Source: a virus (taxonomy: Duplodnaviria; Heunggongvirae; Uroviricota; Caudoviricetes). Taken from it: a stretch of DNA of 35,821 bases. Positions within the stretch are counted from its first letter, which is position 1; every line of letters begins with the position of its first letter. Shown in pieces: positions 1-15,686 of this stretch. Position numbers and translations under genes: made by a program. The DNA is taken from the IMG/VR virus record IMGVR_UViG_2698536369_000023; one strand, given 5' to 3'. Below the pieces are notes generated by a model. It did no database searches, had not been told where the DNA came from, and saw only the letters and a list, made by a program, of their open reading frames with translations.

Positions 1-1020
1 CTACTTGCTAACCACGAGCGGCAGATCCAGTGTTGGTGTGATTTTTGTTTTACGATCGTAAATCAACACCTGATTTTCTGTTTTATGCCCGCTGAAAATT
101 TGTTTGTCGCGACTGCTGCCTTCGTAATCTGAGATCCCCTTGGCTTTTATGTCGTGAAAATTGCACCCGAACGGAACGCCAACTTTTTGCTCGGCTGAGC
201 GTTTAGCCTGATTCCACCAGTTGTTCAGCGTTTTAGCTATGACTTTCCCGCCTTTGGTTGTATTGATCACATATTCGCATGTACAGGAAGATACATTTCG
301 GGCTAACTGGATCGCTGTACGTAATCGCGGTGACCATTCCTTGATTTGTTTGGTGCCGGTTTTGTTTTGCTCAATGTAGATCCCTTTATCCATAATATCC
401 TGCCATTTCAACTCAAGCACATCACCGAGCCTTGCCGCACAGAGATAGGAAATCTCCATTGCAATGCGTAACTGTGGAATTGCTTCCGCATATATCGCTG
501 CATACTGTTCATCGGTGATGTAAACAGTGCGGGCTTTAAGAGAGAATTTTCTGACTCCTTTACATGGGTTATTCTTCACGTATCCACGCTCATATCCCCA
601 CCCGTATACTCGACTCAGGCTTGCCAGTTCATGATTTGCCTGGGTCTTGCTCTCAAGCCCTCGTTTATCCATGAAAATTCTTACCTGCTCAGTTTTGACA
701 TTATCAGCAAGCACTTTTCCGAATACCATCAGCAACGCCTTCTGATGTTGTCGATAATCTTTTTGGGTTCGGGGGGCCAGTTCTGTAAATGCAGGGGAGT
801 CCATAAACATGTGCCATAATTTAGCTACGGTCATTATGTTGTGGAGTTTTGCTTTTTCCAGTTCATAATTTTGCCAGACTTTAGCTACGCTGGTTTTCCG
901 CACTCTTCCTAGCCCTATAGTTCTTGTACTTCCTTCTGGTTTCCACACGTAACTGTAACCATTCGATCTAACCCGCGGTGGCAGTACATTATCTTTTTTA
1001 TTTTTTCTTGGTCTTCCCAT
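1..1020 (-). CDS. int: Tyrosine-type site-specific integrase
   Basis: 339-aa ORF with stop at 1-3; phage integrase-like sequence throughout; first gene at the prophage end, overlapped by a small upstream xis-like gene. Confidence 0.88.
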   Translation of the reverse strand: MGRPRKNKKDNVLPPRVRSNGYSYVWKPEGSTRTIGLGRVRKTSVAKVWQNYELEKAKLHNIMTVAKLWHMFMDSPAFTELAPRTQKDYRQHQKALLMVFGKVLADNVKTEQVRIFMDKRGLESKTQANHELASLSRVYGWGYERGYVKNNPCKGVRKFSLKARTVYITDEQYAAIYAEAIPQLRIAMEISYLCAARLGDVLELKWQDIMDKGIYIEQNKTGTKQIKEWSPRLRTAIQLARNVSSCTCEYVINTTKGGKVIAKTLNNWWNQAKRSAEQKVGVPFGCNFHDIKAKGISDYEGSSRDKQIFSGHKTENQVLIYDRKTKITPTLDLPLVVSK

Positions 1021-1240
1021 TGTTCAGCGCCTCAAAATCGGGTTCAGCAGAAACCAGTTCAGATGTTTTTGGCATCGTTGTCAGTCCGTGTGGAATATCC
1101 CTGCGTAGAACTATTGGTTCGTTTTTAGGACCGATTACAAATGGGATGCCGTGCAGTCTTAACTGGTGTTGCTGTTTTGTGTATCGCTCGTATTTCGTGA
1201 TCTCTTTAATCTCTGCTGGAGATAGAGTTAATTCGTACAT
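998..1240 (-). CDS. xis: Putative excisionase / small DNA-binding protein
   Basis: 80-aa basic ORF immediately upstream of int and overlapping its start by 23 nt; canonical xis position. Sequence not matched to a specific family from memory. Confidence 0.5.
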   Translation of the reverse strand: MYELTLSPAEIKEITKYERYTKQQHQLRLHGIPFVIGPKNEPIVLRRDIPHGLTTMPKTSELVSAEPDFEALNNGKTKKK

Positions 1241-1307
1241 GTGGTCACGTGCCTTTACAGCATGACCGCCGCCACTATAGCTGGTGGGCGGCGATATGGG
1301 TTGAACA

Positions 1308-3800
1308 TTAAAAATCAGCCTGACTCGGGATCAGTTTTTGCCAGATAGCTGAAACGTATTTTGCCTGATAACGGGCGTCATCAAGTGCATTATGGCGCTC
1401 ACCTTCGAATGGGGTAGCAGTTCTGGCATCGAAGTCTATGGCTTTCCCCAGCTCAACGATTGTGCGTACATCGCGATCGTTGTAGTAACGCCACGGGCAG
1501 GGGATCCCCTGCCGTTCGTATGAACGGCGCAAAATCGTGTTGTCGAAGTTGGCTCCATTTCCCCAGACCTGAACAAAAAACTCACCGGAGTTTTCGTCGA
1601 TAAATTCCCGCAATTGTAACAGTGCATCATCTAACGGGATTTCATCGGTCATAATGGCAGACTGCGCTTCACGTGATTGCTTCAGCCACCTTTTAATGAC
1701 GTCACGATCAATGACTCCGCCAGCAGTTTCCAGATCGATAGTCTTACTAAATTCCGGTCCCATATCTCCGGTTTGCGGATCGAAAAATATTGCACCTATT
1801 GAGATAATCGGGGCATCAGGATTTTTTCCCATGGTTTCAAGGTCGATCATTAGATGGTCACACGTCCTGCTGGTGGATGTGATTTCTTGATGACCGTTCA
1901 CCTTAATTGAGTGATCTGCCGTCTCGCCAGTTTCATTATCGCTATCGTGATGCTGATTGCCGCCAGTGTTCTCCTTGTGTGGATGTTCAGCGCCTTCCAT
2001 TTCCTCCGGATCATCTTCCTGAACTTCAGGCTGATACTCTTCATCGAATGTTTCCTGGTATGTTGCGTCGCCCATTACCGCGCCACAATCAGGGCAGTTG
2101 CCGCCGCCGGTCTGACCGCAGGCGGTGCAGACTTTTTCCACTTCCTGTTGCGCCACTGATTCAGGCTGTTTCGTTTCTGGCTCGTTTTGTAACGCATTTG
2201 GGCTGTTTTGTAACGCATTTGGGCTGTTTTGTTCCGCTTTCTGGTCGTTCTGTTCCGTTTCTTGCTGGTTCTGGTTCACAGAATCGCGGGTCTGGTTCCC
2301 CTTAACCCATTTCGGATCATTCGGGTCGCTAATCCCTTCAACAAATTCACCACGTGATACTGCAAGCAGTTCATCGGCGTCAGGCTGGCTGATATTGGCT
2401 GCCTGCATAATTTTGTTTACTTCGTCAGCGGTAACTTTTACTGACCCTGGTTGTGCGGTCGTGTCAGATGCACCAGTATTTTGTTGTGAACCTGAGTATG
2501 TACCGTTTTTGCGGGCGAAATATTCTTCTTTCGTGATTTCAGTAGCCCCAGCAGACAGCGCCTTATCCAGACCAGAAAGTTTGTTTGCGCGACCGTATTT
2601 TTCGCCATCCTTGTCGGTGAAGAGGAAGTAGAACGGCCCCTCACGTTCTACAGATGGTTCGACTTCCACTTTGCATTCGGTTTTTTCGTTGTCCGGAATT
2701 GCCGTTTCCACTGCATCAGTTTCTGGTACTGGCGACGAGAGAGTATCAGTTGCGCTCTGATTTGTTCCTTCATCTTCAAACACGCCCTTTGTAGTCAGGT
2801 ATTCAGTAATGTATTTGTTCAGTGCCACAGGGTCTTTGTGAATGTCGATCGGACGTTCACGGACAAGGCCAAAAATAGTCTGGCGGTCGTAGCGAAGGGC
2901 ATCAGGCTGTTTGCGCATTGATGCCGAGATACGCTTCCAGTCTTCGCGGTCGTTGTCGATAACTTCATTTTTTGCCCAGCGATGGATGCTGCCGTCAATG
3001 TTTCCGGCATCCACATCACCAGGCCAGAGAGCGTAGGCCAGTTCGTCATCCAGTGTTTTCCATGTCTGCTTGTATTCGCGATGAATGGCAGCAATGACCG
3101 GGTTGATTTTTCCTGTTGAATTTTCAGTGTGCTGTTGATTGGCTCTGGCGCGGGCGAGATCAACAACAGACGTGTATTTTCCGGCTTCCTTGCGTTCACC
3201 TTCGCGACGTTTTTTCCAGATGCGCATCTCTGCCTGAATTTCGGGCCATTTGGCACCAGGCTTACATTTATGCTTAACCCACCCGATGGCATGCAGCTTA
3301 AGCTCCGGATACATGGCGTTAACTTCTGGCATTTTCATCAACGCTTCAACGATATGTCCGTCGAATGTTGCCATGTCTTCCTGCAACAGTTCCTGCGCGC
3401 TAATCACCATATCAACGGTGATGTTTTCACATGTGTCGAACTTAACCATGACAGCGTTCTGTACTTCAGGGGCCAGCTTGTCAAAAGTGACGTTCATCGG
3501 ATCTGATTCAGTCTCAACCGGGACAAAGGAAGCAGACGCCTCATCCCAGCGGTTTTCCTGCATATATTCAGCATCCCAGGAATCTAGGGCAGGGCGGGGT
3601 ATACCGGGTTTATCCTCGCAGACAAGAAATTTATAAGCGCAGTCCTGAGCAGCCGGATAATGTTCCAGGAATTGCCAGTGAAATTTTGCGCGGGCGCGAC
3701 GTTCATCACCGGCTTCAATGGCAGTGGCTACAGCGACGGCACCTTCTTCCTTTATTGCCTGTTCGTCCGGAATGGCGGCGCAAATAAAGACTTTACTCAT
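1308..3800 (-). CDS. Large phage exonuclease (exodeoxyribonuclease VIII-like N-terminal region, Cys4 zinc ribbon, C-terminal DEDD-type 3'-5' exonuclease-like domain)
   Basis: 830-aa ORF. C-terminal motifs MIDLETMG ... HNALDDARYQA resemble DnaQ-like exonuclease motifs; CTACGQTGGGNCPDCGA is a zinc ribbon. No bet/recT/erf-type annealing protein is adjacent. Confidence 0.7.
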   Translation of the reverse strand: MSKVFICAAIPDEQAIKEEGAVAVATAIEAGDERRARAKFHWQFLEHYPAAQDCAYKFLVCEDKPGIPRPALDSWDAEYMQENRWDEASASFVPVETESDPMNVTFDKLAPEVQNAVMVKFDTCENITVDMVISAQELLQEDMATFDGHIVEALMKMPEVNAMYPELKLHAIGWVKHKCKPGAKWPEIQAEMRIWKKRREGERKEAGKYTSVVDLARARANQQHTENSTGKINPVIAAIHREYKQTWKTLDDELAYALWPGDVDAGNIDGSIHRWAKNEVIDNDREDWKRISASMRKQPDALRYDRQTIFGLVRERPIDIHKDPVALNKYITEYLTTKGVFEDEGTNQSATDTLSSPVPETDAVETAIPDNEKTECKVEVEPSVEREGPFYFLFTDKDGEKYGRANKLSGLDKALSAGATEITKEEYFARKNGTYSGSQQNTGASDTTAQPGSVKVTADEVNKIMQAANISQPDADELLAVSRGEFVEGISDPNDPKWVKGNQTRDSVNQNQQETEQNDQKAEQNSPNALQNSPNALQNEPETKQPESVAQQEVEKVCTACGQTGGGNCPDCGAVMGDATYQETFDEEYQPEVQEDDPEEMEGAEHPHKENTGGNQHHDSDNETGETADHSIKVNGHQEITSTSRTCDHLMIDLETMGKNPDAPIISIGAIFFDPQTGDMGPEFSKTIDLETAGGVIDRDVIKRWLKQSREAQSAIMTDEIPLDDALLQLREFIDENSGEFFVQVWGNGANFDNTILRRSYERQGIPCPWRYYNDRDVRTIVELGKAIDFDARTATPFEGERHNALDDARYQAKYVSAIWQKLIPSQADF
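2184..2232. repeat. In-frame 21-bp tandem repeat (about 2.3 copies) inside the exonuclease gene
   Basis: gttttgtaacgcatttgggct repeated head-to-tail; on the coding strand it gives the NSPNALQ NSPNALQ peptide repeat. Confidence 0.8.
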
Positions 3801-3879
3801 TTTGTTTTACCTCATTACAGATTTAAGGGTGAACAAATCCCTGCCATTGCTGGCATATAAAAATGAAACTGGATATTAA

Positions 3880-4083
3880 TTACGGCGCTGTTTTTAATCC
3901 TGCCGGGATTTCGTTATTGTCCATGTGAATAACTTTATCGACCGGATAACAGTTGCCGGGAATTTTCTGTTCGGTTGCTGCAGTCATACACTCCTGCATT
4001 GTCCTGTGAACACTGACTGCAATATCAACTGGCTCTCCGGAAACAAGAAAAACTGTCAGAACAAGCGCAAATGCAGAATTCAT
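3880..4083 (-). CDS. ydfD: YdfD-like small secreted/membrane protein (Qin-type dicB operon, last gene)
   Basis: Start at the internal Met MNSAFALVLTVFLVSG (signal-peptide-like) preceded by AAGGA N8 ATG; ATGA overlap with the dicB stop. The track ORF 3880-4137 is the N-extended version. Confidence 0.6.
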   Translation of the reverse strand: MNSAFALVLTVFLVSGEPVDIAVSVHRTMQECMTAATEQKIPGNCYPVDKVIHMDNNEIPAGLKTAP

Positions 4084-4268
4084 TGTGCACATCCTTTTGG
4101 CATCAGACGTAAACGAGCCAGCATTGAAACAATGCATATTTTATTTAATAGCTCCCGTTCTTGTTTTCTCTTGTTAATGGCATCTTCAGTAAATACAGGG
4201 TTACTGATAGTGACACCAATTTCAAAACAACCTTCAGACGTATTAACGTTTGGTAATAACGTTTTCAT
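4083..4268 (-). CDS. dicB: Cell division inhibitor DicB
   Basis: 62-aa product MKTLLPNVNTSEGCFEIGVTISNPVFTEDAINKRKQERELLNKICIVSMLARLRLMPKGCAQ matches recalled DicB; GAGGA N7 ATG RBS. The longer track ORF 4080-4373 is an N-terminal over-extension. Confidence 0.8.
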
Positions 4269-4437
4269 TATCGCGTCCTCAACAATGAATTTTGTGATGC
4301 AGTGCCTGGTGCCTCCAGGTGACGTTAACCAGTTAACAATTAACGCCGGATACAGAGAATCCACCCATAACACTGTTTTTGGTTTTAACTGTTCCGCGTG
4401 CGCTTAGCCGCATTCACCGCATCACAAAATTCACTTT

Positions 4438-4495
4438 AAAAAGGGCGGCAGAGCAGTCACGGAGTAAAACTGATACCGCCAAACGTCACCAGAAA
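4438..4495 (-). ncRNA. dicF: DicF small regulatory RNA (ftsZ-targeting antisense sRNA)
   Basis: Reverse complement of 4438-4495 reads TTTCTGGTGACGTTTGGCGGTATCAGTTTTACTCCGTGACTGCTCTGCCGCCCTTTTT, matching recalled DicF; it lies between ydfC and dicB as in Qin. Confidence 0.75.
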
Positions 4496-4835
4496 ATTGA
4501 TAACAGAGGGCGTTGCAGCGGGGTTGTCACTTAAGCGTATGGTCAACCTGACAACTCGGTGTCCTCAACGGGGAAGGAATAACCCCGCCATACTTACCGC
4601 CGCGCCATTTCGCGGAGTGCCACAACCGGAAGCGCACGGTCGACGAAAATTTAACGACAGGCTATCTATGAACCAGCTACCTCGCCGTGCGCTTTCGCGT
4701 TATGGTCTGACTTTTCAGGGAAATATCCTTTCAGTAAACTGTCAGTGCCGGATGCTCACCCGTGTCCGGCGCACGCACTCCACCTCACCCGTGGAGAACT
4801 CCTTAATTACCAACCTTAGCTTCGTTGGTTAGCTA

Positions 4836-5054
4836 TTAACGCGGGTATGTAATCATTCTGGCAATGCTTAATGCCGCTGCTTTTTCCAGATTGGTGATAT
4901 CCTGCTCCAGAGCGGACAGATTTTCAGCCTGCTTAGCCCTGGCTTCATTGGCCCATTTCAGATCCTGCGCTGCATTAATTTTCTGGCGCATCCACTCATA
5001 AAGTTCATCATCGGTATAGTCTGGCGCGATGATGACGGGTTCTCGTTTCTGCAT
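4836..5054 (-). CDS. ydfC: YdfC-like protein (dicB operon)
   Basis: 72-aa ORF with GAGGA N6 ATG RBS; sequence MQKREPVIIAPDYTDDELYEW... matches recalled YdfC. Confidence 0.7.
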   Translation of the reverse strand: MQKREPVIIAPDYTDDELYEWMRQKINAAQDLKWANEARAKQAENLSALEQDITNLEKAAALSIARMITYPR

Positions 5055-5083
5055 ACTGATTCCTCGCGGTGCTGTTTCGCTTA

Positions 5084-5212
5084 TCAGCCGTTAGATTTTG
5101 CCGAACTGGAAAGCGCCTGTTTAAATTCGTTGAAGCTGAGAGCTTCTTCGCCGTCGGCAAGACCTTCGAAGTATTCTTCGTAAGCCTTTTCCATGATTGT
5201 GTCGAAATCCAT
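5084..5212 (-). CDS. ydfB: YdfB-like small acidic protein (dicB operon)
   Basis: 42-aa ORF MDFDTIMEKAYEEYFEGLADGEEALSFNEFKQALSSSAKSNG found by manual translation (below the track's size cut-off); AGGTGA RBS; starts 2 nt after the ydfA stop. Confidence 0.6.
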   Translation of the reverse strand: MDFDTIMEKAYEEYFEGLADGEEALSFNEFKQALSSSAKSNG

Positions 5213-5213
5213 A

Positions 5214-5369
5214 TCACTCACCTGAGTTTCTTTCCAGCCAGCGACGGGCACCATTTTCGGTTTTAAACGTTTTGCTTTTGGTATACGTCATCACGGTGAA
5301 CGTACCGTCCTGGTTGGGGAACACGCCACATACCAGAGATTCGTTGTTGCCAAGATTGAGCATATCCAT
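5214..5369 (-). CDS. ydfA: YdfA-like protein (first gene of dicB operon)
   Basis: 51-aa product MDMLNLGNNESLVCGVFPNQDGTFTVMTYTKSKTFKTENGARRWLERNSGE with GAGG N5 ATG RBS. The track ORF extends to 5450; that alternative start cannot be excluded. Confidence 0.6.
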   Translation of the reverse strand: MDMLNLGNNESLVCGVFPNQDGTFTVMTYTKSKTFKTENGARRWLERNSGE

Positions 5370-5576
5370 GTTGACCTCATTTCCCCTTAACGCCGGGGTA
5401 GCGGAACAAAAACCTGCTGCATAGTTATTAAAGTTGAACCCTGCCGTCATGTTCTTACGCCTCGGGCTGGCTACTTAACCCCTGACCACTGCCGGGTAAC
5501 TCGAAGTATTGCCTGGCGTTCTGTGGGGCGGGGTGGGTTGATGAATGAACAATACCACTACTATTTAATTATGTAA

Positions 5577-5589
5577 ATAGCATTGCTAT
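5577..5589. promoter_or_regulatory. Candidate leftward operator (O_L-like): 13-bp palindrome ATAGCATTGCTAT upstream of the dicB operon
   Basis: Perfect inverted half-sites ATAGCA / TGCTAT around one central base; the same TGCTAT half-site recurs twice in the repressor-cro intergenic region. Confidence 0.45.
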
Positions 5590-5600
5590 TATCGTGGCAA

Positions 5601-5625
5601 GAAAAAAACCACCCGAAGGTGGTTG
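5601..5625 (-). terminator. Rho-independent terminator ending the repressor-antitoxin-toxin transcript
   Basis: Minus-strand hairpin AACCACC-TTCG-GGTGGTT followed by a run of 7 T, 14 nt downstream of the toxin stop. Confidence 0.65.
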
Positions 5626-5638
5626 TTGACAGGAAGGA

Positions 5639-5929
5639 TTAACAGGTTTTGTTTGGATACTGTCTTCGTGAGTGAACTACATTTACGATCTCGATGTTAG
5701 ATGCTGTTACTCGGTAAAGTATTATGTAGTTAGGATGAGTCACTATCTCACGAAGACTTGGAACTCTTTCGCTCGGTGGGTACAGATAAGGGTGTTCAGT
5801 AAGTGACAAAACTGATGTTTCAATGCGTATTTTTAGTCTACGTGCAGCGGGAGGGTTTTCCTTAGCAATATAGGCTACGATCTGACGTAAATCATCACGT
5901 GCAGAAGGTAGCCATAAAATGGGCAGCAT
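5639..5929 (-). CDS. parE: ParE/RelE-superfamily toxin (ParE2-like)
   Basis: 96-aa ORF with ParE-like sequence (plasmid stabilization toxin family); ATGA overlap with the upstream antitoxin. Confidence 0.75.
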   Translation of the reverse strand: MLPILWLPSARDDLRQIVAYIAKENPPAARRLKIRIETSVLSLTEHPYLYPPSERVPSLREIVTHPNYIILYRVTASNIEIVNVVHSRRQYPNKTC

Positions 5930-6120
5930 TACTCACTCCTGTTCGTTGCAGCTAATTGAGCAATAAGGTTTTCCATTTCAGCCATTACTTCGTCATGTGG
6001 AATTGCAGGACGGGGATCTGAGAGGCTTGCTGCCACTTTGGTTCGCAACCATTCGTTATAGCTGTTTTCTTGTTCGACTGTTTCAAATTCAGAAATTATC
6101 GGGGAAAGGGCTGTACTCAT
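5929..6120 (-). CDS. paaA: PaaA2-like antitoxin (63 aa)
   Basis: 63-aa acidic ORF directly upstream of and overlapping the ParE-like toxin; motif SEFETVEQENSYNEWLRTKV resembles recalled PaaA2 of the O157 paaR2-paaA2-parE2 system. Confidence 0.65.
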   Translation of the reverse strand: MSTALSPIISEFETVEQENSYNEWLRTKVAASLSDPRPAIPHDEVMAEMENLIAQLAATNRSE

Positions 6121-6137
6121 GTTTTTACCTCCTCAGA

Positions 6138-6638
6138 TTAGGCGCGACGACCCTTTTGCGCAGCTAGCCATCGCGCAACGATTTCTTCAATTGATTCTTT
6201 TTTCTCCTTCATTTCCTTAAGCATTTTCTCTTTATCTTCTTTGGGGAAAGCCCTGAACGTCTGGAGCAAATCCCGCTCCATGGGGTCTATATTAAACGGA
6301 AGTTCGTTTTCCGATTGTTCCATATCTGCAGATATAGTGACAACATTGTCCTCCCCAGATTCTTGGGGATACATCCTTACAATTTGTAACAACTCGGCCA
6401 TATCTGGTCTGATTGACTCGGGAGGAACTTGCAGCAACCCTGCGAACTTGATAACAGCCTCAAGATTTAAAGGTGTCTGACCATTTAGATAATGGCTTAC
6501 AGCTCCCTGTGTCGAAAATCCCAGAATTTCTGCCGCACGCTCTTGGGTTAACCCTAGTTGATTTTTTTTCGCCGTCCAGATTTCTTTCAGTCTCTGGGCG
6601 GCTTGCAGGTCGATCTCTGACAGGGATTTTCTTTTCAT
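6138..6638 (-). CDS. paaR: HTH (XRE/Cro-C1 type) transcriptional regulator; PaaR2-like and probably the prophage immunity repressor (no LexA-type peptidase domain)
   Basis: 166 aa with N-terminal HTH (LGLTQERAAEILGFSTQGAVSHYLNG); divergent from a Cro-like gene; 17-nt gap to the antitoxin; the ATG has almost no SD spacing (possibly leaderless). Confidence 0.65.
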   Translation of the reverse strand: MKRKSLSEIDLQAAQRLKEIWTAKKNQLGLTQERAAEILGFSTQGAVSHYLNGQTPLNLEAVIKFAGLLQVPPESIRPDMAELLQIVRMYPQESGEDNVVTISADMEQSENELPFNIDPMERDLLQTFRAFPKEDKEKMLKEMKEKKESIEEIVARWLAAQKGRRA

Positions 6639-6674
6639 ACCTTCAATTCTAATAAGATTATTAATCTCTTTGAA

Positions 6675-6687
6675 ATAGTGATGCTAT
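6675..6687. promoter_or_regulatory. Candidate operator O_R site 1 (ATAGTGATGCTAT)
   Basis: 13-bp near-palindrome sharing the TGCTAT half-site with the O_L candidate; ends on the first base of the proposed -35 of the rightward promoter. Confidence 0.4.
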
Positions 6688-6715
6688 TTACTTTTAAAAA
6701 TAACAATGCTATTAA
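6687..6715 (+). promoter_or_regulatory. Putative P_R-like sigma70 promoter for the cro-like operon
   Basis: -35 TTTACT (6687-6692), 17-nt spacer, -10 TATTAA (6710-6715), followed by RBS GAGGTG and ATG at 6746. Confidence 0.35.
6700..6712. promoter_or_regulatory. Candidate operator O_R site 2 (ATAACAATGCTAT)
   Basis: 13-bp near-palindrome 25 bp from site 1; overlaps the proposed -10 element. Confidence 0.4.
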
Positions 6716-6745
6716 TGATCGTGATGACATCACATGAGGTGAACA

Positions 6746-7021
6746 ATGAATCTTGGAGAATATTTGCATCATTCCGGTATAACTCAGAAGCATTTTGCTG
6801 AAATTGTTGGGGTAACCCAAGGGATGGTAAGCCATGTCATTACCGGACGGGCGAAACTTACGGGGAAAAAAATTTTACGCTGGTGCGAAGCAACAGGCTG
6901 GATAGTAACTCCGCACGAGATTGATGGCAGTACTTATCCCAACCCAACCGACGGCTTACCTGTCGAGTATCAGGCTAACACACAACCAGAGGCGGGGGTG
7001 ATTCATGAAAATCAAGCATGA
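6746..7021 (+). CDS. Cro-like HTH regulator (YdaS/Cro family)
   Basis: 91 aa with HTH motif QKHFAEIVGVTQGMVSHVITG; divergent from the repressor; RBS GAGGTG. Confidence 0.7.
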   Translation: MNLGEYLHHSGITQKHFAEIVGVTQGMVSHVITGRAKLTGKKILRWCEATGWIVTPHEIDGSTYPNPTDGLPVEYQANTQPEAGVIHENQA

Positions 7022-7430
7022 ACACATCCGCATGGCAATGAATGCCTGGGCGCATCCGGACGGCGAAAAAGTACCGGCTGCGAAAATTACCAAAGCGTAT
7101 TTCGAGCTGGGAATGACGTTCCCGGAACTGTATGACGACAGCCATCCGGAAGCCCTGGCTCGCAATACTCAGAAAATTTTCCGCTGGGTGGAGAAAGACA
7201 CCCCTGATGCGGTTAAAAAAATTCAGGCGTTGTTACCAGCTATCGAAAAAGCAATGCCACCTCTGCTGGTGGCCCGAATGCGCAGCCACAGTTCTGAATA
7301 TTACCGTGAGATCGTCGAACGGAGGGATCGGCTGGTGAAGGATGTCGATGATTTTGTTGCGTCAGCGGTTGTTTTGTATGACCAGATGAATCGCGGCGGC
7401 CCGGCAGGGAATGCTGTGGTGATGCACTAA
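7005..7430 (+). CDS. YdaT-family protein (CII-like position)
   Basis: 141 aa starting MKIKHEHI..., matching the recalled Rac YdaT N-terminus; overlaps the cro-like gene end by 17 nt. Confidence 0.55.
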   Translation: MKIKHEHIRMAMNAWAHPDGEKVPAAKITKAYFELGMTFPELYDDSHPEALARNTQKIFRWVEKDTPDAVKKIQALLPAIEKAMPPLLVARMRSHSSEYYREIVERRDRLVKDVDDFVASAVVLYDQMNRGGPAGNAVVMH

Positions 7431-7452
7431 AAGCACGGTGTTCGGGGGTTTT

Positions 7453-8415
7453 ATGAGCAGCAAGCTTCATGGTCTTGTCTGGGAAGGGTGCGCCTTTACC
7501 GGCATGATCTTATCCAGGGTGGCGGTTATGGCCCGTCTTGCAGACTACAGCAATGACGAGGGCGTGTCATGGCCTGCCATTGAAACTATCCGGCGTCAGA
7601 TCGGTGCAAGAAGTGAATCCACAGTGAAATCGGCTATTGCAGAACTGGCGAAAGAGGGCTGGCTGACGAAGGAAGAGCGTAAGGTCGGTGGGCGTAATGT
7701 AAGCAATATCTATCGGCTTAATGTGGAAAAACTCGAAGCAGCTGCGGCGGCGGCGCGTGAGTCATATAAACCGAAAAGAAAAATTAGCCCGGCAAAAAAT
7801 GACCCGTTAACAGTTGACCCGTCAAATATTGACCCCTCAACGGTTGACCCGTCAAATTTTGATGGATCAACTGTTGATAAAAAACTGCCGATTAGGGGGG
7901 CGATGATTGACCCCGATCCGTCAGTATTAAAACCTGATCCGTCAGATAAAAGATCTTCTTGTCCGGACGCTTCGCAACCGGACCCGCAGACGGCTGAACA
8001 GGATTTTTTAACCCGACACCCTGACGCGGTTGTGTTCAGTGCGAAAAAACGCCAGTGGGGAAGTCAGGAAGATTTGGTGTGCGCACAGTGGATCTGGGGA
8101 CGAATCGTGAGTCTTTACGAGCAGGCGGCCAGCTATGATGGCGAGATCACTAGACCGAAAGAACCCAACTGGACAGCATGGGCCAATGACGTTCGCACAA
8201 TGCGGATGCTGGATGGCAGAACTCACAGACAAATTTGTGAAATGTTTGGGCGTCTCCAGCGGGATTCGTTCTGGGTAAAAAACATCATGAGTCCGGCAAA
8301 ACTCCGGGAAAAATGGGATGAACTGGTTATCCGCCTGGGGCGTTCGCCTGCGCAGCGTTGCGTGAATCACATTTCTGAACCGGACACTGAAATACCGCCG
8401 GGATTCAGGGGGTGA
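7453..8415 (+). CDS. Phage replication initiation protein (O-like) with origin iterons embedded in the coding sequence
   Basis: ORF with GGGGG RBS before ATG 7453 (the track starts at a GTG at 7438); N-terminal winged-helix-like region; iteron array inside the gene; followed by a DnaC-like loader. Confidence 0.65.
   Translation: MSSKLHGLVWEGCAFTGMILSRVAVMARLADYSNDEGVSWPAIETIRRQIGARSESTVKSAIAELAKEGWLTKEERKVGGRNVSNIYRLNVEKLEAAAAAARESYKPKRKISPAKNDPLTVDPSNIDPSTVDPSNFDGSTVDKKLPIRGAMIDPDPSVLKPDPSDKRSSCPDASQPDPQTAEQDFLTRHPDAVVFSAKKRQWGSQEDLVCAQWIWGRIVSLYEQAASYDGEITRPKEPNWTAWANDVRTMRMLDGRTHRQICEMFGRLQRDSFWVKNIMSPAKLREKWDELVIRLGRSPAQRCVNHISEPDTEIPPGFRG
7799..7885. repeat. Replication origin iterons: six approximately 15-bp repeats (TTGACCCGTCAAAT-like, each internally palindromic TTGAC..GTCAA) followed by an AT-rich segment
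   Basis: Repeat starts near 7799, 7814, 7829, 7844, 7859 and 7874 at 15-bp periodicity, then ttgataaaaaact; analogous to ori-lambda inside gene O. Confidence 0.7.
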
Positions 8416-8421
8416 CGTGTC

Positions 8422-9168
8422 ATGAAAAACATTGCGGCAGTTGGGGTTCTTGAACGTATTCGCAGACTTGCACCACAGGGGTCGGTTCCACCGTACCGGA
8501 CGGTGGAGGAGTGGCGGGAATGGCAACTTGCTGAAGGACGAAAACGCAGCGAGGAGATTAACCGCCAGAATCGCCAGTTGCGGGTGGAAAAAATCCTGAA
8601 TCGTTCGGGCATCCAGCCTCTGCACAGCAAATGCTCGTTTGCAAATTATCAGGTGCAGAACGACGGGCAAAAATACGCGCTGAGCCAGGCCAAATCCATA
8701 GCTGACGAACTGATGACCGGGTGCACGAATTTTGTGTTCAGCGGTAAAACCGGCACCGGGAAAAATCACCTTGCAGCGGCGATGGGCAACCGGCTGATGG
8801 TGAAGGGGCGCAGCGTGATTATCGTCACCGTGTCTGACGTCATGAGCGTGTTGCATGACAGCTACGACAACGGCAAATCCGGGGAAAAATTTTTACAGGA
8901 GCTTTGCGGGGTTGATTTGCTGGTCCTGGATGAAATAGGCGTTCAGCGGGAGACGAAAAACGAGCAGGTGGTATTGCACCAGATAATTGATCGCCGGACA
9001 GCATCACTGTGCAGTGTCGGGATGTTAACAAACCTGAATCATGCCGCAATGAGTACGCTTCTTGGTGAGAGGATTATGGACCGCATGACCATGAACGGTG
9101 GTCGATGGGTGACGTTTAACTGGGATAGCTGGCGTCCAAATGTCAGCAATATGAGGGTTGTGAAGTAA
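8422..9168 (+). CDS. DnaC-like helicase loader (IstB-type AAA+ ATPase)
   Basis: Walker A GKTGTGKNHLA and Walker B DLLVLDEIG; follows the initiator as in lambdoid O-P / Rac ydaU-ydaV. Confidence 0.85.
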   Translation: MKNIAAVGVLERIRRLAPQGSVPPYRTVEEWREWQLAEGRKRSEEINRQNRQLRVEKILNRSGIQPLHSKCSFANYQVQNDGQKYALSQAKSIADELMTGCTNFVFSGKTGTGKNHLAAAMGNRLMVKGRSVIIVTVSDVMSVLHDSYDNGKSGEKFLQELCGVDLLVLDEIGVQRETKNEQVVLHQIIDRRTASLCSVGMLTNLNHAAMSTLLGERIMDRMTMNGGRWVTFNWDSWRPNVSNMRVVK

Positions 9169-9189
9169 TTTTGTCCGGAGGAAATTTTA

Positions 9190-9960
9190 ATGGAAACCGT
9201 ATCTGACGCACTGAAAGCACTGAAAAAAGCCTCTTCACATGTGGTGGCAGCTCGCCTTGGAATCAGTCGTGAAGAGGCTGTCAACGAGCTGTGGGAACTC
9301 AAAAGAAAAGGCGTCGTTGATAAAACTGGTCACACCTGGTTTCTGGCTGGCGAAGGTGAATCCCGGGTAACCGAAGAGCGGCCAGTAAAATCTGAAGCAC
9401 AGGATATGCTGACCGGGGAGGTCGAACAAAAAGTTACCGCAGACATGATGATTGAGTTTATCGGTCAGGATGGGGCTAAAACGTGTGAGGAACTGGCGGG
9501 TAAGTTCGGTGTCAGTACTCGCAAGGTTGCTTCCACGCTGGCGGTGGTAACCGCAACGGGGCGGCTGGCACGCGTTAATCAGAACGGTAAATTTCGTTAC
9601 TGCATGCCGGGCGATAATTTACCAGCAGAGCCGAAAGCCGCGCTGGTAACGGAAAGTGATGGTAAGGCCTTTCCTCAGCCAGCAGGTGCTGCGTTACCAG
9701 TCCGGGAAGCCGCAACACAGGAAGAAATTAAAACAGAAACTGTGGCGGACATTGTGCAGCCGTTGCCATCGTTTACCGAAACGCAAGCAGATGAGCTGAT
9801 TTTTCCGTCCCTTCGCAGGGCAAACCTGGCGCTGCGCAGGGCGAAAAGTGATGTTCAGAAGTGGGAGCGAGTCTGCGCCGCGCTGCGGGAGCTGAACAAG
9901 CACCGGGATATTGTTCGACAGATTACTGATTCTTCCCGCCGTGTTGTATCGGAAAAGTGA
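9190..9960 (+). CDS. Hypothetical early-region protein (recalled as a DUF1627-type enterobacterial prophage protein)
   Basis: 256-aa ORF with GGAGG RBS; domain name from memory only. Confidence 0.5.
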   Translation: METVSDALKALKKASSHVVAARLGISREEAVNELWELKRKGVVDKTGHTWFLAGEGESRVTEERPVKSEAQDMLTGEVEQKVTADMMIEFIGQDGAKTCEELAGKFGVSTRKVASTLAVVTATGRLARVNQNGKFRYCMPGDNLPAEPKAALVTESDGKAFPQPAGAALPVREAATQEEIKTETVADIVQPLPSFTETQADELIFPSLRRANLALRRAKSDVQKWERVCAALRELNKHRDIVRQITDSSRRVVSEK

Positions 9961-9975
9961 TTGCCGGAGGCGCTT

Positions 9976-10398
9976 ATGGCAAAAGTATTTACACAAGAAG
10001 AGCGGGAAAAAATTAAAGGGCAGGTTGTTGAACTAGTACGCCGGAGTGGGCGCGAGACGTTACGGCAACTGGAAGCCAAGACAGGTGCGACAAGATATCT
10101 GATGAGCGTTCTCGCCAGAGAGCTGGTTGCCAGTGGCGATGTATACAACTCTGGTTACGGGTTATTCCCGTCTGAACAGGCTCGTAAGGACTGGCAAAAT
10201 GCCCGCAAAAAACTATCTAGGGCAAAGGTGAAGAAACCATCTGTGGTTGATCCGGATCTTATCTGGTCATTACCAGACGGAGAAATACGTCGCTACGACA
10301 GGCGTATGAGCATAATCTGTCGCGAGTGCCGGAGAAGTGAAGTTATGCAGCGCGTGCTGGCGTTCTATCAGGGGAATTTTCAGGAGGTGATGCTGTGA
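9976..10398 (+). CDS. Hypothetical protein
   Basis: ATG at 9976 preceded by GGAGG (the track ORF starts at a TTG at 9961); 4-nt overlap with the next gene. Confidence 0.5.
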   Translation: MAKVFTQEEREKIKGQVVELVRRSGRETLRQLEAKTGATRYLMSVLARELVASGDVYNSGYGLFPSEQARKDWQNARKKLSRAKVKKPSVVDPDLIWSLPDGEIRRYDRRMSIICRECRRSEVMQRVLAFYQGNFQEVML

Positions 10399-10883
10399 GT
10401 ACACCGGCAACCATTCTTGATATGTGCTGTGGCAGCCGTATGTTCTGGTTCGATAAGAATGACGACCGGGCGATATTTAGCGATATCAGAAAGGAAGAGC
10501 ATACATTGTGCGATGGGCGACGCCTGATTATTAGCCCTGACCTGATAGCAGATTTTCGTGCATTACCATCTGCAGACGCAACGTTTCCGGTTGTTGTATT
10601 CGACCCTCCGCATCTTGAGCGTATTGGTGATAATGCCTGGATGGGAAAGAAATATGGACGGCTGAATAAAGATACCTGGCGTGATGATTTGCGGCAGGGA
10701 TTTAAAGAAGCCTTTCGTGTGTTGTGGCCACATGGCGTTCTGATTTTTAAATGGAATGAAACGCAAATATCTGTCCGCCAGATATTGGCACTGACCGACG
10801 TGAAACCAATCATCAGCCAGCGCACTGGTAAGAACGATAAAACACATTGGATTATTTTTATGAAGGAGGCAACCAGTGGGTAA
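10395..10883 (+). CDS. Small phage DNA adenine methyltransferase (phage Dam-like; DPPH motif)
   Basis: N-terminal LDMCCGSRM (SAM-binding-like) and VVVFDPPH (D/N-PP-Y/F/H catalytic motif of amino-MTases); AGGAGG N6 GTG start. Confidence 0.6.
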   Translation: MSTPATILDMCCGSRMFWFDKNDDRAIFSDIRKEEHTLCDGRRLIISPDLIADFRALPSADATFPVVVFDPPHLERIGDNAWMGKKYGRLNKDTWRDDLRQGFKEAFRVLWPHGVLIFKWNETQISVRQILALTDVKPIISQRTGKNDKTHWIIFMKEATSG

Positions 10884-11130
10884 ATCAAAATGCCTGGTTT
10901 ATGGCAACAAGATAGAACCGTGTACGGCACTGGCAAAATCCCTTGAGCATGATGCTGAATACACGACGCGAAAAGGTCTGCTGATATACAAAATCTGGAA
11001 TGAGAGTTTAACTCGCGGCCCTGATTTGGTGATGTTGCGTTCCGGTGAATTTTCTAAATCACCAGTGCGGGTTTCATTTTGTCCGTTCTGTGGTGAAAGT
11101 CTGAAAACGTGGGAGAACAGAAATGAATGA
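10876..11130 (+). CDS. Hypothetical protein with a CxxC pair
   Basis: 84-aa ORF, GTG start with GAAGGAGG RBS; contains CPFCGE. Confidence 0.45.
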   Translation: MGKSKCLVYGNKIEPCTALAKSLEHDAEYTTRKGLLIYKIWNESLTRGPDLVMLRSGEFSKSPVRVSFCPFCGESLKTWENRNE

Positions 11131-11434
11131 AATTAAAGAAATACCAGTAGTACGTGATGAATATGGCTGCTGGACGCATCCTGAATATGAAAAATTCTGT
11201 GATGGTAGAGAACATATTTCAACGGAAGAGTTTAACGCATGGATGGAGGAAAATAATCTTCAATGGACCATCAGAACTATGGATGAAGATGATTTTAATC
11301 TGGACGCAGATGGTCCCGATATTGCCGCTTGGGAACCAGAGCGACCAGAGGGCGAAGGCTGGTTTGTTGGCTCTATTCATGACACTGAAGATGGTCCTGT
11401 TTGTGTATGGCTGAGAAATAAGGCTGAAGCATAA
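11123..11434 (+). CDS. Hypothetical acidic phage protein
   Basis: 103-aa ORF with RBS; overlaps the previous gene by 8 nt. Confidence 0.5.
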   Translation: MNEIKEIPVVRDEYGCWTHPEYEKFCDGREHISTEEFNAWMEENNLQWTIRTMDEDDFNLDADGPDIAAWEPERPEGEGWFVGSIHDTEDGPVCVWLRNKAEA

Positions 11435-11563
11435 AGGCGATAAATCACCTGGCAACAAAACACTGAAAAATTTAAATCAGAAGTGAATTTTATTAAATCC
11501 TTAACCGGAGGGATTCCTGCACCCTCAGAACATCAGGAGGCCGCCTGAAAGGGCGGTAATGAA

Positions 11564-11746
11564 ATGCGAAAGTTCAGAATAATAATTGAAACGGGAATGG
11601 CTGGTGGAGATTTTGAGGATGTATTCGAAGTGGATGATGGCGCGACACCAGATGAAATACAGGACGAAGCAAAAGAAATTTTCTTTAACTACTGCAATTA
11701 CTCATATCACGAAATAAAAGACGAGGAGGAAGAACAAAATGGCTGA
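11564..11746 (+). CDS. Small hypothetical acidic protein
   Basis: 60-aa ORF with AAAGGG RBS. Confidence 0.4.
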   Translation: MRKFRIIIETGMAGGDFEDVFEVDDGATPDEIQDEAKEIFFNYCNYSYHEIKDEEEEQNG

Positions 11747-11915
11747 TTTTGGTTCAACTAAATACAACGTCAGTTTTGAAGAATGGCATGAACTGTTAAT
11801 GGACTATGCAGAGTTACGCGGTGGAAGTGCTGCTGATGCTGAAGCATGGCGTGATGATTATGAAGCAGGGAAAACTCCGGTCGAAGCATATTGTGATGAG
11901 TGGGGCGATGAATGA
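11739..11915 (+). CDS. Small hypothetical protein (58 aa; manually detected)
   Basis: ATG 11739 overlaps the previous stop and its stop overlaps the next start (ATGA); product MADFGSTKYNVSFEEWHELLMDYAELRGG... Confidence 0.35.
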   Translation: MADFGSTKYNVSFEEWHELLMDYAELRGGSAADAEAWRDDYEAGKTPVEAYCDEWGDE

Positions 11916-12469
11916 GCGGGATTAACTATCAGATGCTGCGGGATAAGGCAGAGAACGCAACTAAAGGAGGCTACATCGTAGGGCATACATCTGTTAACCA
12001 GCACGGTAATTTAACAGGAGTTTTTGTTTGTCAAAAATGGAAAGGAGAACCAGGTGGCGTGATTGCAGAATGTCATGTTAACTGCCTGGTTGAAACAGAT
12101 GCTCAGGCTTATGCAAACGCAGAATTCATAGCAGAGGCTAGCCCGGCTACCGTGCTGGCACTACTGGATGAACGGGAAGCAGCCAACAAGCGCATAGCAG
12201 AACTGGAAGCACGGGAAATAAAACCAGCCAAAGGCGAAGTTCTTGTCGTTGTATCTGGTTTTACTGGTTGCGGAAAAAGCGCCATCGCCGGGGAAATAGA
12301 AATCGCGATGAAGGCTATTGGTGTACCGGTTAAGTGGACTAATGGCGATGCAGAAAAGCGCATGACTGGCGCTGACTGGCTGACAGCGATTGAGATGTAC
12401 AAACCAACTGTGCGCATCGTGGAAGTTAATGTGCCACGCGCCGCTGGCATTCGCATCAAAGGAGAGTGA
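11912..12469 (+). CDS. Ead/Ea22-like protein
   Basis: Motif PATVLALLDEREAANKRIAELEA resembles the recalled Ead/Ea22-like family of lambdoid prophages. Confidence 0.55.
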   Translation: MSGINYQMLRDKAENATKGGYIVGHTSVNQHGNLTGVFVCQKWKGEPGGVIAECHVNCLVETDAQAYANAEFIAEASPATVLALLDEREAANKRIAELEAREIKPAKGEVLVVVSGFTGCGKSAIAGEIEIAMKAIGVPVKWTNGDAEKRMTGADWLTAIEMYKPTVRIVEVNVPRAAGIRIKGE

Positions 12470-12470
12470 T

Positions 12471-12680
12471 ATGGCTATCGCTGCAAGTTACACCATGCAT
12501 CTCTATTGTGATTGCCTCCAGTGTACAGATGGCAAATATAAGTCGCCAGACTTCGGTGAGTATATAGGTACGTCATGGGCTGGCTGTGCAAAAGAGGCGC
12601 GCAAGGATGGCTGGCGAATAAGCAAAGACAAAACGCGTGCTTTTTCACCCGGGCATAAAGTTTTGAGGATTAACAAATGA
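12471..12680 (+). CDS. Small cysteine-rich hypothetical protein
   Basis: ATG 12471 with AAAGGAGAG RBS (the track ORF 12390-12680 is N-extended); CDCLQC motif. Confidence 0.45.
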   Translation: MAIAASYTMHLYCDCLQCTDGKYKSPDFGEYIGTSWAGCAKEARKDGWRISKDKTRAFSPGHKVLRINK

Positions 12681-13486: not shown

Positions 13487-13566
13487 CCTGGCCTGAGGCA
13501 TTTACCACGGTAGGGATTGCAATGGCCGTGGCGTTGGTGGTGTATTCGATTTGCCGCTGGGGGTAA
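13483..13566 (+). CDS. Possible 27-aa single-TM peptide
   Basis: ATGA-coupled to the upstream gene; product MTWPEAFTTVGIAMAVALVVYSICRWG is hydrophobic. Very short, so speculative. Confidence 0.25.
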   Translation: MTWPEAFTTVGIAMAVALVVYSICRWG

Positions 13567-14186: not shown

Positions 14187-14254
14187 GAGACCCGGCGGGG
14201 GAGAAATCCCTCGCCACCGCTGATGTGTCAGGCATCCTCAACGCACCCGCACTT

Positions 14255-14632: not shown

Positions 14633-14633
14633 C

Positions 14634-15674: not shown

Positions 15675-15686
15675 AAGAGGTTACTG

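Follow-up and report, generated by a model that had tools for sequence, protein, structure and literature searches.

The locus lies in a window (the whole 35,821-nt stretch of DNA analysed) that holds integrase, replication, Q, lysis, terminase, portal, capsid and tail genes and ends within the tail genes. Three minus-strand ORFs follow one another there: a 166-aa helix-turn-helix (HTH) regulator, a 63-aa antitoxin and a 96-aa ParE toxin. Seventeen nucleotides (6121-6137) separate the regulator gene from the antitoxin gene, and the antitoxin and toxin genes overlap by 1 nt in a TAATG at 5929. The ORFs thus have the coordinates and the 17-nt and -1-nt spacings given in an earlier sequence-only reading. 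Across an intergenic region of 107 bp, the regulator gene is divergent from a Cro-like gene and the gene for YdaT, a CII analogue. The coding features are as follows.

5639-5929, minus strand: ParE-family toxin, 96 aa, pI 9.7 (Pfam, PDB match)
5929-6120, minus strand: PaaA-type antitoxin, 63 aa, pI 4.4, without a DNA-binding domain (Pfam, PDB, NCBIfam)
6138-6638, minus strand: predicted immunity repressor and regulator of the toxin-antitoxin (TA) operon, 166 aa (domain, profile and structure comparisons)
6746-7021, plus strand: Cro/YdaS-analogue HTH protein, 91 aa (Pfam HTH_3; phrog_35)
7005-7430, plus strand: YdaT, functional analogue of CII, 141 aa (Pfam YdaT_toxin; PDB 8bt1)

The toxin matches the Pfam ParE_toxin profile (PF05016) from end to end (positions 1-89 of 89; 65.5 bits, cutoff 23, 6.6e-18), and its residues 1-92 are 65% identical to crystallised ParE2 (PDB 5cw7; E 5e-36). 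The sole Pfam match of the antitoxin is PaaA2 (PF21217; 77.1 bits, cutoff 27, 1e-21), and it also matches the PaaA2 structure 3zbe (E 2e-22) and the NCBIfam family TA_RelB_antitoxin (92.8 bits). The antitoxin is acidic, as had been claimed, and the toxin basic. SD-like sequences stand 6-7 nt upstream of both ATGs (GAGGAGG for the antitoxin, AGGAG for the toxin). The operon has the order regulator-antitoxin-toxin, with a separate upstream HTH regulator and a single terminator past the toxin gene, and the proposal of a three-component PaaR/PaaA/ParE-type module is upheld. The TA pair resembles a second O157 paralogue (84-85% identity) more than it does PaaA2/ParE2 (62-65%). Toxicity relieved by the cognate antitoxin is demonstrated only for ParE2.

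The regulator consists of a lambda-CI-type N-terminal domain (residues 1-90), a disordered linker (90-118) and a two-helix C-terminal tail of PaaR/DicA type (119-166). The N-terminal domain is 40% identical to lambda CI chains over 86 columns (phmmer, E 9e-10 to 1.5e-9), and Foldseek placed the AF2 model on the lambda CI N-terminal domain with a TM-score of 0.86-0.93 relative to the target and an rmsd of 1.1-1.7 A. It is 52% identical to the N-terminal domain of Stx2a-phage CI. The closest phage relatives of this DNA-binding half are the SOS-cleavable Stx2a-phage repressors; the other half is a non-cleavable PaaR/DicA tail.

That the regulator has no cleavable repressor domain agrees with three lines of evidence. 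HTH_3 is its only Pfam match, and a search for the Peptidase_S24 domain that bears the Ser-Lys dyad and cleavage site of such repressors gave no match to PF00717; its alignments with CI proteins end at about residue 90-115; and in the AF2 model the disordered linker is followed by two helices only. The last 44-50 or so residues are 55% identical to PaaR2 (44 aa) and 68-70% identical to regulators of 132/133 aa, whereas the DNA-binding domain cannot be aligned with that of PaaR2 and there is no full-length homology to it. Since only this C-terminal stretch aligns, the protein joins a PaaR-type tail to a DNA-binding domain of another kind. The description of the regulator as PaaR2-like is therefore sound for the C-terminal 50 or so residues and fails as a statement of orthology. 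The tail also matches phrog_5736 and the DicA C-terminus (NCBIfam NF007257, E 1.5e-7); membership in the DicA family was rejected, the match being confined to positions 75-130 and scoring 31.2 bits where the family cutoff is 101. Searched by sequence for a solved structure, the tail alone gave chance-level matches only, and for a PaaR-type regulator of 133 aa the matches were confined to HTH domains, among them that of the 434 repressor. At the level of sequence, then, the regulator is a mosaic of a CI-type DNA-binding domain and a PaaR-type tail.

The control features of the region are these.

5549-5577, minus strand: predicted PL analogue, TTTACA-17 nt-TATTGT, with extended TG (promoter scan, 9/12)
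5551-5565, no strand: operator copy OL-b, AATACCACTACTATT, 3 mismatches, covering the PL -10 (motif scan)
5576-5590, no strand: operator copy OL-a, AATAGCATTGCTATT, an exact palindrome about its central base, covering the PL -35 (motif scan)
5597-5624, minus strand: intrinsic-terminator-like hairpin, stem 5607-5624, U-tract 5597-5606 (sequence, folding energy)
6646-6674, minus strand: predicted PRM analogue, TTCAAA-17 nt-TAGAAT (promoter scan, sequence)
6651-6665, no strand: weak third operator candidate, AATAAGATTATTAAT, 10/15 matches, covering the PRM -10 (direct reading)
6674-6688, no strand: OR2-like operator, AATAGTGATGCTATT, abutting the PRM -35 and overlapping the PR -35 (motif scan)
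6687-6715, plus strand: candidate PR, TTTACT-17 nt-TATTAA (by eye, 8/12)
6699-6713, no strand: OR1-like operator, AATAACAATGCTATT, covering the PR spacer and -10 (motif scan)
6998-7015, no strand: predicted YdaT operator (OM-like), GTGATTCATGAAAATCAA (motif search)

The operator-like palindromes reported between the regulator and Cro-like genes are indeed present in the 107-bp intergenic region. A 15-bp palindrome, AATAGCATTGCTATT, is confined to OR and OL/PL, the latter just past the terminator. When the 35.8 kb were scanned with up to 3 mismatches, four sites were found, every one at OR or OL (8 strand-hits against 1.26 expected; 1 of 100 shuffles gave as many as 8). The OR1-like and OR2-like operators are 25 bp apart, centre to centre, and OL carries two sites only. 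The third candidate at PRM is tentative because it falls below the 3-mismatch threshold of the scan, and PR is put forward by inference because 8/12 falls below that of the promoter scan. Only 7 nt lie between the PRM -10 and the regulator ATG, and a leaderless mRNA is therefore predicted; such a start has been established by experiment for paaR2 only (PMC8630535 / PMC9986795). Another palindrome, GTGATGACATCAC, of 13 bp in the cro leader (6721-6733), was considered as an extra operator and rejected, as it is not conserved in the closest locus of the same type (L006).

The hairpin lies 15 nt past the toxin stop and has a 7-bp stem, a UUCG loop and a U7 tract. It looks canonical, but its energy of only -10.4 kcal/mol (z = -1.5) does not bear out the word "strong" of the earlier reading.

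The divergent Cro-like gene is also real, matching HTH_3 and the transcriptional repressors of phrog_35 (3.6e-20). The Cro analogue co-varies with the N-terminal type of the regulator across loci, and so do the operators: L002/L005, L003/L004, L006 and CP-933P (L007) each have a type-specific motif common to their own OL and OR, and the motif that we found for CP-933P agrees with the published footprinted consensus. YdaT matches the CP-933P YdaT structure (PDB 8bt1, E 3.5e-90) and is 96.5% identical to the YdaT of CP-933P/Sp12 encoded in L007. Its predicted operator, GTGATTCATGAAAATCAA, has one mismatch to the published motif TTGATTN6AATCAA (PMC9986795). Downstream of PL, and presumably driven by it, is the operon ydfA-ydfC-dicF-dicB, in which DUF1391, DicF and DicB were identified.

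This is the setting of a lambdoid immunity region: ydaS/cro and ydaT face the regulator gene, and past the toxin gene come OL and PL. The assignment of the TA genes to the rexAB position was correct: the pair lies between the repressor gene and the terminator, directly after which comes a leftward promoter with the operators of OR. In our view the locus very probably represents the immunity region of an E. coli prophage of lambdoid (Qin/CP-933P-like) type, in which a PaaA/ParE type II TA pair is co-transcribed with the repressor.

We infer from the sequence that the 15-bp palindromes, at OR (6674-6713) as well as at OL (5551-5590), are bound by the regulator, the sites and their co-variation being what is observed. 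The anatomy of the locus and the experiments on PaaR2 suggest that binding would shut the rightward promoter for cro, ydaT and the replication genes and the leftward promoter for ydfA, dicF, dicB, exo, xis and int, and that the regulator would control its own PRM-like, probably leaderless promoter. By analogy with the reported octamerisation of PaaR2 (PMC8630535 / PMC9986795), the conserved helical C-terminal tail may serve for oligomerisation and might link OL to OR across the 1.1 kb between them. The paaA and parE genes would be carried on the repressor transcript, translationally coupled and ending at the hairpin at 5597-5624, and the antitoxin would neutralise the toxin by direct binding, as in the homologous PaaA2-ParE2 crystal complex. 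Because the pair would share the repressor transcript and its antitoxin lacks a DNA-binding domain, its transcription would depend on the phage switch.

Plasmid stabilisation data exist for the CP-933P homologue (PMC8630535 / PMC9986795) and suggest that ParE would be set free whenever the cassette was lost or replaced, the antitoxin being probably labile, and that the cassette and the prophage would thus be addictive. An addiction role is a proposal even in CP-933P, because ParE2 activity went undetected there in either state of the switch (PMC8630535 / PMC9986795). What is presumed for the present locus, by transfer from CP-933P, is that the regulator binds DNA and represses, that its mRNA is leaderless, that the toxin is toxic and that the antitoxin is labile.

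Alternatively, the TA pair might serve mainly for phage exclusion or abortive infection, as a RexAB-like module on the lysogenic promoter rather than for addiction, and this would be compatible with the explanation given above. The pair has the place of rexAB, with the repressor gene on one side and OL/PL on the other, and its co-expression with the repressor also speaks for this role, as does the use of the post-repressor slot for other cargo, in the manner of a defence/moron hotspot. The cargo that follows the repressor in the related loci L012 and L013 is HipA_2 plus DUF3037. However, no PADLOC model matched the regulator, the antitoxin or the toxin, and no homology to RexA or RexB was found among the module proteins, which are PaaA and ParE and have position alone in common with RexAB. 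The experiments on the family concern plasmid stabilisation and addiction only, with exclusion unreported in PMC8630535 and PMC9986795. We therefore think exclusion unlikely as the main role.

The module proteins are 100% identical to their counterparts in E. coli O104:H4. Compared with the prophage of O104:H4 2009EL-2071, all five proteins are intact, four of the five at 100% identity and YdaT at 97%. A related full cassette occurs in 72 complete genomes (matches covering 80% or more of the 2.1-kb query). In the phage collection the flanks alone matched at the DNA level (27% coverage), and at the protein level no record spanned at least 80% of the regulator; a PaaR2-type cassette is present in the deposited phage genome Evi. 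These observations bear on the idea that the module is an inactive remnant of a decaying, cryptic prophage, which can be argued from the cryptic state of the model system CP-933P and from the absence of detected steady-state ParE2 activity there (PMC8630535 / PMC9986795). We hold it to be very improbable, given ORFs that are all full length with good translation signals, the identity with the O104:H4 set, the occurrence of related cassettes in complete genomes and of a PaaR2-type one in a phage genome, and a window stocked with genes from integrase to tail. The host prophage looks complete, unlike cryptic CP-933P.

No separate canonical cI was found within the window, which ends in tail genes. 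Pfam and PHROGs searches of the early-region ORFs revealed no S24 domain that would mark a second repressor and no Ant, Rha or KilAC protein that would mark an antirepressor; nor did the annotated O104:H4 prophage show another repressor, S24 domain or antirepressor. A LexA-controlled antirepressor is likewise unsupported: the window has no match to the 20-mer LexA-box consensus with up to 3 mismatches, and its single CTGT-N8-ACAG (24569) lies inside structural genes and is at chance level. With no S24 autocleavage domain in the regulator, induction through RecA-stimulated self-cleavage is not to be expected. A "split antitoxin" role, in which the 166-aa protein would control no more than the TA operon it belongs to and immunity would be left to another repressor, is very improbable, for although HTH_3 domains are common in type II antitoxins and the far right end of the prophage is outside the window, the same operators recur at the leftward early promoter 1.1 kb off and outside the TA operon, OL and OR operators co-vary in every immunity type, the gene is exactly in the cI/dicA position facing cro and ydaT, no rival switch protein was found in the window or the O104:H4 prophage, and PaaR2 has been shown to repress PR and PL (PMC8630535; PMC9986795).

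The TA genes and the tail-coding segment form a conserved core flanked by two specificity islands, one made up of OL and one of the N-terminal domain with OR and cro. Since these islands lie on both sides of the core, a recombinational immunity swap would have to carry the TA pair along or lose it. A joint reading, in which a natural CI/PaaR-tail chimera governs an apparently complete prophage and the TA pair either polices cassette swaps or, through ParE release, cross-induces other prophages, is one that we regard as improbable. A pair that does police replacement of the immunity cassette would belong to the working parts of the prophage switch rather than being cargo merely carried along. 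It would equally do so if ParE set free on derepression raised the SOS response and cross-induced SOS-dependent prophages resident in the same cell, for example the Stx2a phage of O104:H4. The modularity itself, a constant TA pair and repressor tail with interchangeable DNA-binding domains and matching OL/OR operators, offers a natural heteroimmune set that should be useful for probing the published idea that the TA pair guards the immunity region against replacement. The system also gives a route to the question of how a repressor without an S24 domain is inactivated.

Among known systems, classical parDE (RK2) has a toxin of the same ParE superfamily (PF05016). In contrast to parDE, the antitoxin here is without a DNA-binding domain, so that control of transcription falls to a third, separate protein instead of the antitoxin-toxin complex. 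Qin of E. coli K-12 (DicA/DicC-dicBF) shares the leftward operon ydfA-ydfC-DicF-dicB-DUF1482 and the match of the regulator tail to the DicA C-terminus, but the DicA score of 31 bits is far under the cutoff of 101 and the N-terminal domain differs; Qin is not known to carry a TA pair in the interval from dicA to the dicB promoter. Lambda cI-rexA-rexB has a homologous repressor N-terminal domain (40% identity, five-helix fold, basic N-terminal arm), divergent PRM/PR with operators 23-25 bp apart and a second operator set at PL, cargo co-transcribed with the repressor, a terminator before PL, and a leaderless repressor mRNA, which is predicted here. It differs in that the present regulator has no S24 C-terminal domain, and therefore no RecA-dependent cleavage, in that the cargo is a ParE TA pair and not RexAB, and in that the CII function comes from the unrelated YdaT.

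Among loci with a different repressor type, the closest TA pair is that of O157:H7 Sakai locus L002, which is probably paaR1-paaA1-parE1 of CP-933M. Its antitoxin is 84%, its toxin 85%, its regulator tail 68% and its YdaT 89% identical, whereas the HTH of its regulator (133 aa) resembles that of the 434 repressor and the operator motif is a different one, CAATAAAAAACTG.

The nearest paradigm is the paaR2-paaA2-parE2 system of CP-933P/Sp12 in E. coli O157:H7 (Hallez 2010, as cited in PMC8630535). There PaaR2 is a CI analogue without an S24 peptidase that represses PR and PL, and paaA2-parE2 takes the place of rexAB (Jurenas et al. 2021, PMC8630535; Prolic-Kalinsek et al. 2023, PMC9986795). The two loci agree in the regulator-antitoxin-toxin order, divergent from a Cro analogue and YdaT, in OL/PL just beyond the toxin gene, in an S24-less regulator with a conserved tail (55% over 44 aa), in YdaT (96.5%) with its operator present, and in flanking DNA that is 97-99.6% identical. 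They differ in the DNA-binding domain, which is unrelated in sequence and here of lambda-CI type in a protein of 166 aa versus 123 aa, in Cro (24% identical), in the operators (AATAGCATTGCTATT here, GTTTAGTAA-type there) and in the antitoxin and toxin (62% and 65% identical). The dual role of the regulator, the missing cleavage domain and the replacement of rexAB, all proposed in the sequence-only reading, are thus well founded as a reading and not as a novelty, having been shown or stated for CP-933P (PMC8630535; PMC9986795). The arrangement is one already worked out experimentally in a related O157:H7 prophage; the present locus adds a further instance, in which the repressor has another specificity, and no new kind of system is revealed. 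What is new here are the AATAGCATTGCTATT operators at OL and OR, the motif proper to each immunity type and the mosaic regulator. Their value is modest: the CP-933P paradigm, a TA pair wired into a lambdoid CI/Cro/CII-like switch, now covers a second immunity specificity, and the prophage concerned looks intact and is found also in the O104:H4 outbreak lineage.

We suggest that the module is part of a lambdoid switch that has a toxin-antitoxin (TA) pair encoded in its repressor operon. Its three reading frames lie on the minus strand exactly where the sequence-only reading had put them.

The module and its divergent neighbours
6138-6638, minus strand: regulator, 166 aa
5929-6120, minus strand: antitoxin, 63 aa
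5639-5929, minus strand: toxin, 96 aa
6746-7021, divergent from the regulator: Cro analogue, an HTH protein of 91 aa
7005-7430, divergent from the regulator: YdaT-family protein, 141 aa

The gap between regulator and antitoxin is 17 nt, the antitoxin stop and toxin start share one base (TAATG), and SD-like sequences lie 6-7 nt 5' of the ATG of both TA genes. With pI values of 4.4 and 9.7, the antitoxin and toxin are acidic and basic, respectively. A hairpin 3' of the toxin stop (5597-5624; 7-bp stem, UUCG loop, U7 tract) looks like a canonical terminator, but at -10.4 kcal/mol (z = -1.5) its earlier description as strong is unsupported.

The toxin matched Pfam ParE_toxin (65.5 bits) and crystallised E. 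coli O157 ParE2 (5cw7; E 5e-36, 65% identity), and the antitoxin, in which no DNA-binding domain was detected, matched Pfam PaaA2 (77 bits) and PaaA2 itself (3zbe; E 2e-22). YdaT matched the CP-933P YdaT crystal structure 8bt1 (E 3.5e-90). Only HTH_3/HTH_31 were found by Pfam in the regulator, and Peptidase_S24 was absent, in line with the claim that it has no LexA-like autocleavage domain; induction through RecA-stimulated self-cleavage would not be expected. Regulator residues 2-90 align with the lambda CI N-terminal domain (E ~1e-9, 40% identity, 86 columns). In its AlphaFold model (mean pLDDT 75), residues 8-89 form five helices and residues 119-165 a further two, joined by a disordered linker (90-118). 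The 10 best PDB matches in Foldseek were chains that each include the lambda CI N-terminal domain (for isolated domain chains, TM 0.81-0.93 relative to the target, with rmsd 1.1-1.7 A for most). Towards its C-terminus (residues 107-162) the regulator matches the closing part of the DicA model, at a score far under the DicA family cutoff, as well as the last part of a 133-aa phage regulator family.

The related paaR2-paaA2-parE2 locus has been studied in the immunity region of the cryptic prophage CP-933P, where PaaR2 is a functional CI analogue, YdaS the Cro analogue and YdaT the CII analogue (Jurenas et al. 2021, PMC8630535). That switch is bistable and paaR2 has no leader; footprints of PaaR2 and of YdaS fall in the intergenic region, and a PL promoter beyond the TA pair is repressed by both proteins too. 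PaaR2, which has no peptidase motif, does not respond to mitomycin C, and the locus stabilises plasmids (PMC8630535). Moreover, paaA2-parE2 replace rexA and rexB, PaaR2 replaces CI, and the YdaT operator is defined as TTGATTN6AATCAA (Prolic-Kalinsek et al. 2023, PMC9986795). Therefore, while the overall observation is confirmed and its interpretation supported, three points that the sequence-only reading took for its own inferences (dual role, lack of a cleavage domain, rexAB position) were already in print for this model locus.

We used as CP-933P/Sp12 reference the locus of O157:H7 Sakai (L007), whose PaaR2 starts MQKKE as in PMC8630535, and compared it alongside a second locus of Sakai (L002) and four further variants.

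Identity of the window's proteins to L007 (CP-933P); to L002
YdaT: 96.5%; 89%
Toxin: 65%; 85%
Antitoxin: 62%; 84%
Cro analogue: 24%; 37%
Regulator: only the C-terminal 44 residues align, 55%; C-terminal tail, 68%

The second Sakai locus is presumably the paaR1 locus. The proposed PaaR2-PaaA2-ParE2 likeness thus holds for antitoxin and toxin, and for the regulator fails outside its C-terminal 44 residues.

The palindrome AATAGCATTGCTATT, with at most three mismatches, occurs at four sites only in the 35.8-kb window, two of them between the regulator and the Cro-like gene, where operator-like palindromes had been noticed before.

Operators, promoters and leftward genes
6674-6688 and 6699-6713: AATAGCATTGCTATT-type OR sites, divergent intergenic region, centres 25 bp apart
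6651-6665: weaker third OR site candidate, called by eye
5551-5565 and 5576-5590: AATAGCATTGCTATT-type OL sites, directly past the terminator
6674-6646: predicted PRM analogue, TTCAAA-17-TAGAAT, ending 7 nt short of the regulator ATG
6687-6715: candidate PR, TTTACT-17-TATTAA, callable by eye only
5577-5549, minus strand: predicted PL analogue, TTTACA-17-TATTGT, overlapped by both OL sites
4443-4494, minus strand: DicF sRNA, upstream of dicB, Rfam 76.7 bits
4080-4373: dicB, Pfam 9.6e-40

The 7-nt PRM spacing predicts a leaderless regulator transcript, as for cI and paaR2. PL is followed by DUF1391/ydfA, a ydfC-like gene, DicF, dicB, DUF1482, exonuclease, excisionase and integrase; the leftward early operon under this putative promoter appears to be a Qin-type dicBF cell-division-inhibitor operon (ydfA-ydfC-dicF-dicB-DUF1482). 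A YdaT operator with one mismatch lies at the cro/ydaT junction (6998-7015). The exact 13-bp palindrome GTGATGACATCAC (6721-6733; cro leader, 3' of the candidate PR -10 and 5' of the cro SD) is probably no operator, because it is absent from the closest same-type locus, L006.

In each other immunity type, OL and OR contain one type-specific motif: CAATAAAAAACTG in L002 and L005, CACTTTTAAAGT in L003 and L004, AATAGCATCGCTATT in L006, and ACTAAAC in CP-933P, which agrees with the published footprinted consensus. This co-variation with the regulator N-terminal domain, newly described here with the operators and promoters, is the best evidence short of experiment and points to control of both early promoters by the 166-aa protein; such control would in turn point to an immunity repressor. 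In the window and in the annotated O104:H4 prophage we found no further repressor, no S24 domain, no antirepressor and no credible LexA box, so no separate canonical cI was found to speak against that role.

Against CP-933P, the flanks are 97-99.6% identical and the replaced block (5541-6998) runs from OL to the YdaT operator. Against types with 132/133-aa regulators, similarity of 72-81% extends from ydfA across the TA pair and the last ~50 regulator codons, is lost at ~6270-6930 (N-terminal domain, OR, cro HTH) and returns at 6931, with OL a small diverged island in an otherwise similar block. Therefore, the TA pair and tail-coding segment form a conserved core with a specificity island on each side. 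The closest overall backbone to the window's left half (1-18000; 90% coverage, 96.5% identity), E. coli Z1323CEC0003 (L003), has a different immunity type, with a 132-aa regulator and other operators, and this comparison shows cassette exchange on an otherwise near-identical prophage. The L003 chromosome has a second paaA-parE locus ~44 kb away. A G-rich block, GGGGCGGGGTGGGT (5527-5541), lies directly left of OL, is conserved in all seven loci compared and would mark the cassette's left recombination boundary.

An E. coli O104:H4 2009EL-2071 prophage beside potC encodes the identical regulator, antitoxin, toxin and Cro analogue (100% in protein) and a YdaT with 97% identity. Among 5,426 complete E. 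coli genomes, 72 contain a related cassette in full (covering at least 80% of a 2.1-kb query) and 842 contain paaA-parE-like DNA of any type. Escherichia phage Evi (LR597642.1, 1916-2776) encodes a PaaR2 98% identical to that of CP-933P and has a paaA2-like gene as well as a parE2-like ORF that lacks annotation (65% to the window toxin by tblastn); Evi was deposited as a phage, and therefore PaaR2-type immunity regions are not restricted to cryptic prophages.

Database relatives of the regulator include 166-aa forms (E. coli, E. albertii, Shigella), forms of 147-154 aa that share the N-terminal domain but end in another short helical tail, and forms of 244-255 aa (P0013-P0022; L009-L013) in which the CI-like domain precedes a complete PaaR-type protein, giving two different HTH domains in tandem. 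The last, which occupy the cI slot opposite cro and ydaT, may be dual-specificity repressors. In these loci the position behind the repressor carries variable cargo: HipA_2 and DUF3037 for L012 and L013, whereas L009-L011 have no recognisable TA pair there but a Rha/ASH-domain gene further along. In a phage collection the full-length regulator matched no record; for its N-terminal domain, identity to CI of Stx2a-converting phages is 52%, and this CI gene is annotated as a LexA-family regulator in one or more of their records.

The evidence best supports a lambdoid CI/Cro/CII-like switch with the PaaA/ParE pair included in its repressor operon. The pair would not autoregulate, its transcription depending on the phage switch, and addiction to the immunity cassette or prophage would be a likely consequence. 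A RexAB-like exclusion role is less likely; it is supported only by position, and no PADLOC model fits regulator, antitoxin or toxin. Regulation of the TA pair only, by a protein with candidate sites at both OR and OL, is poorly supported, as is a dead remnant.

A second TA system in the same prophage, the type I hok/sok, lies at 13861-14186 on the plus strand (Rfam sok 117.8 bits; Pfam HOK_GEF 1.4e-21). A Q-like antiterminator (16039-16398) and the tRNA cluster flank three ORFs on the minus strand: one of 303 aa (17048-17959), which is the largest and matches PDC-S42, a PADLOC candidate defence family (E 3e-53), and two small ones (16412-16798, 16799-17044) with neither Pfam nor PADLOC match. 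The set (16412-17959) looks like a putative defence-type moron in the late-promoter region. Four plus-strand tRNA genes (18192-18501; Met-CAT, Lys-TTT, Thr-TGT, Gly-TCC) lie just 5' of the lysis genes, replaced by Ile, Arg and Arg in the O104:H4 prophage.

Whereas CP-933P is cryptic, the window prophage is apparently complete, with integrase, replication genes, Q, tRNA cluster, lysis, terminase, portal, capsid and tail genes, the window stopping inside the tail region. The module is a further member of an already characterised system, set apart by its immunity specificity and by a DNA-binding domain of CI type.
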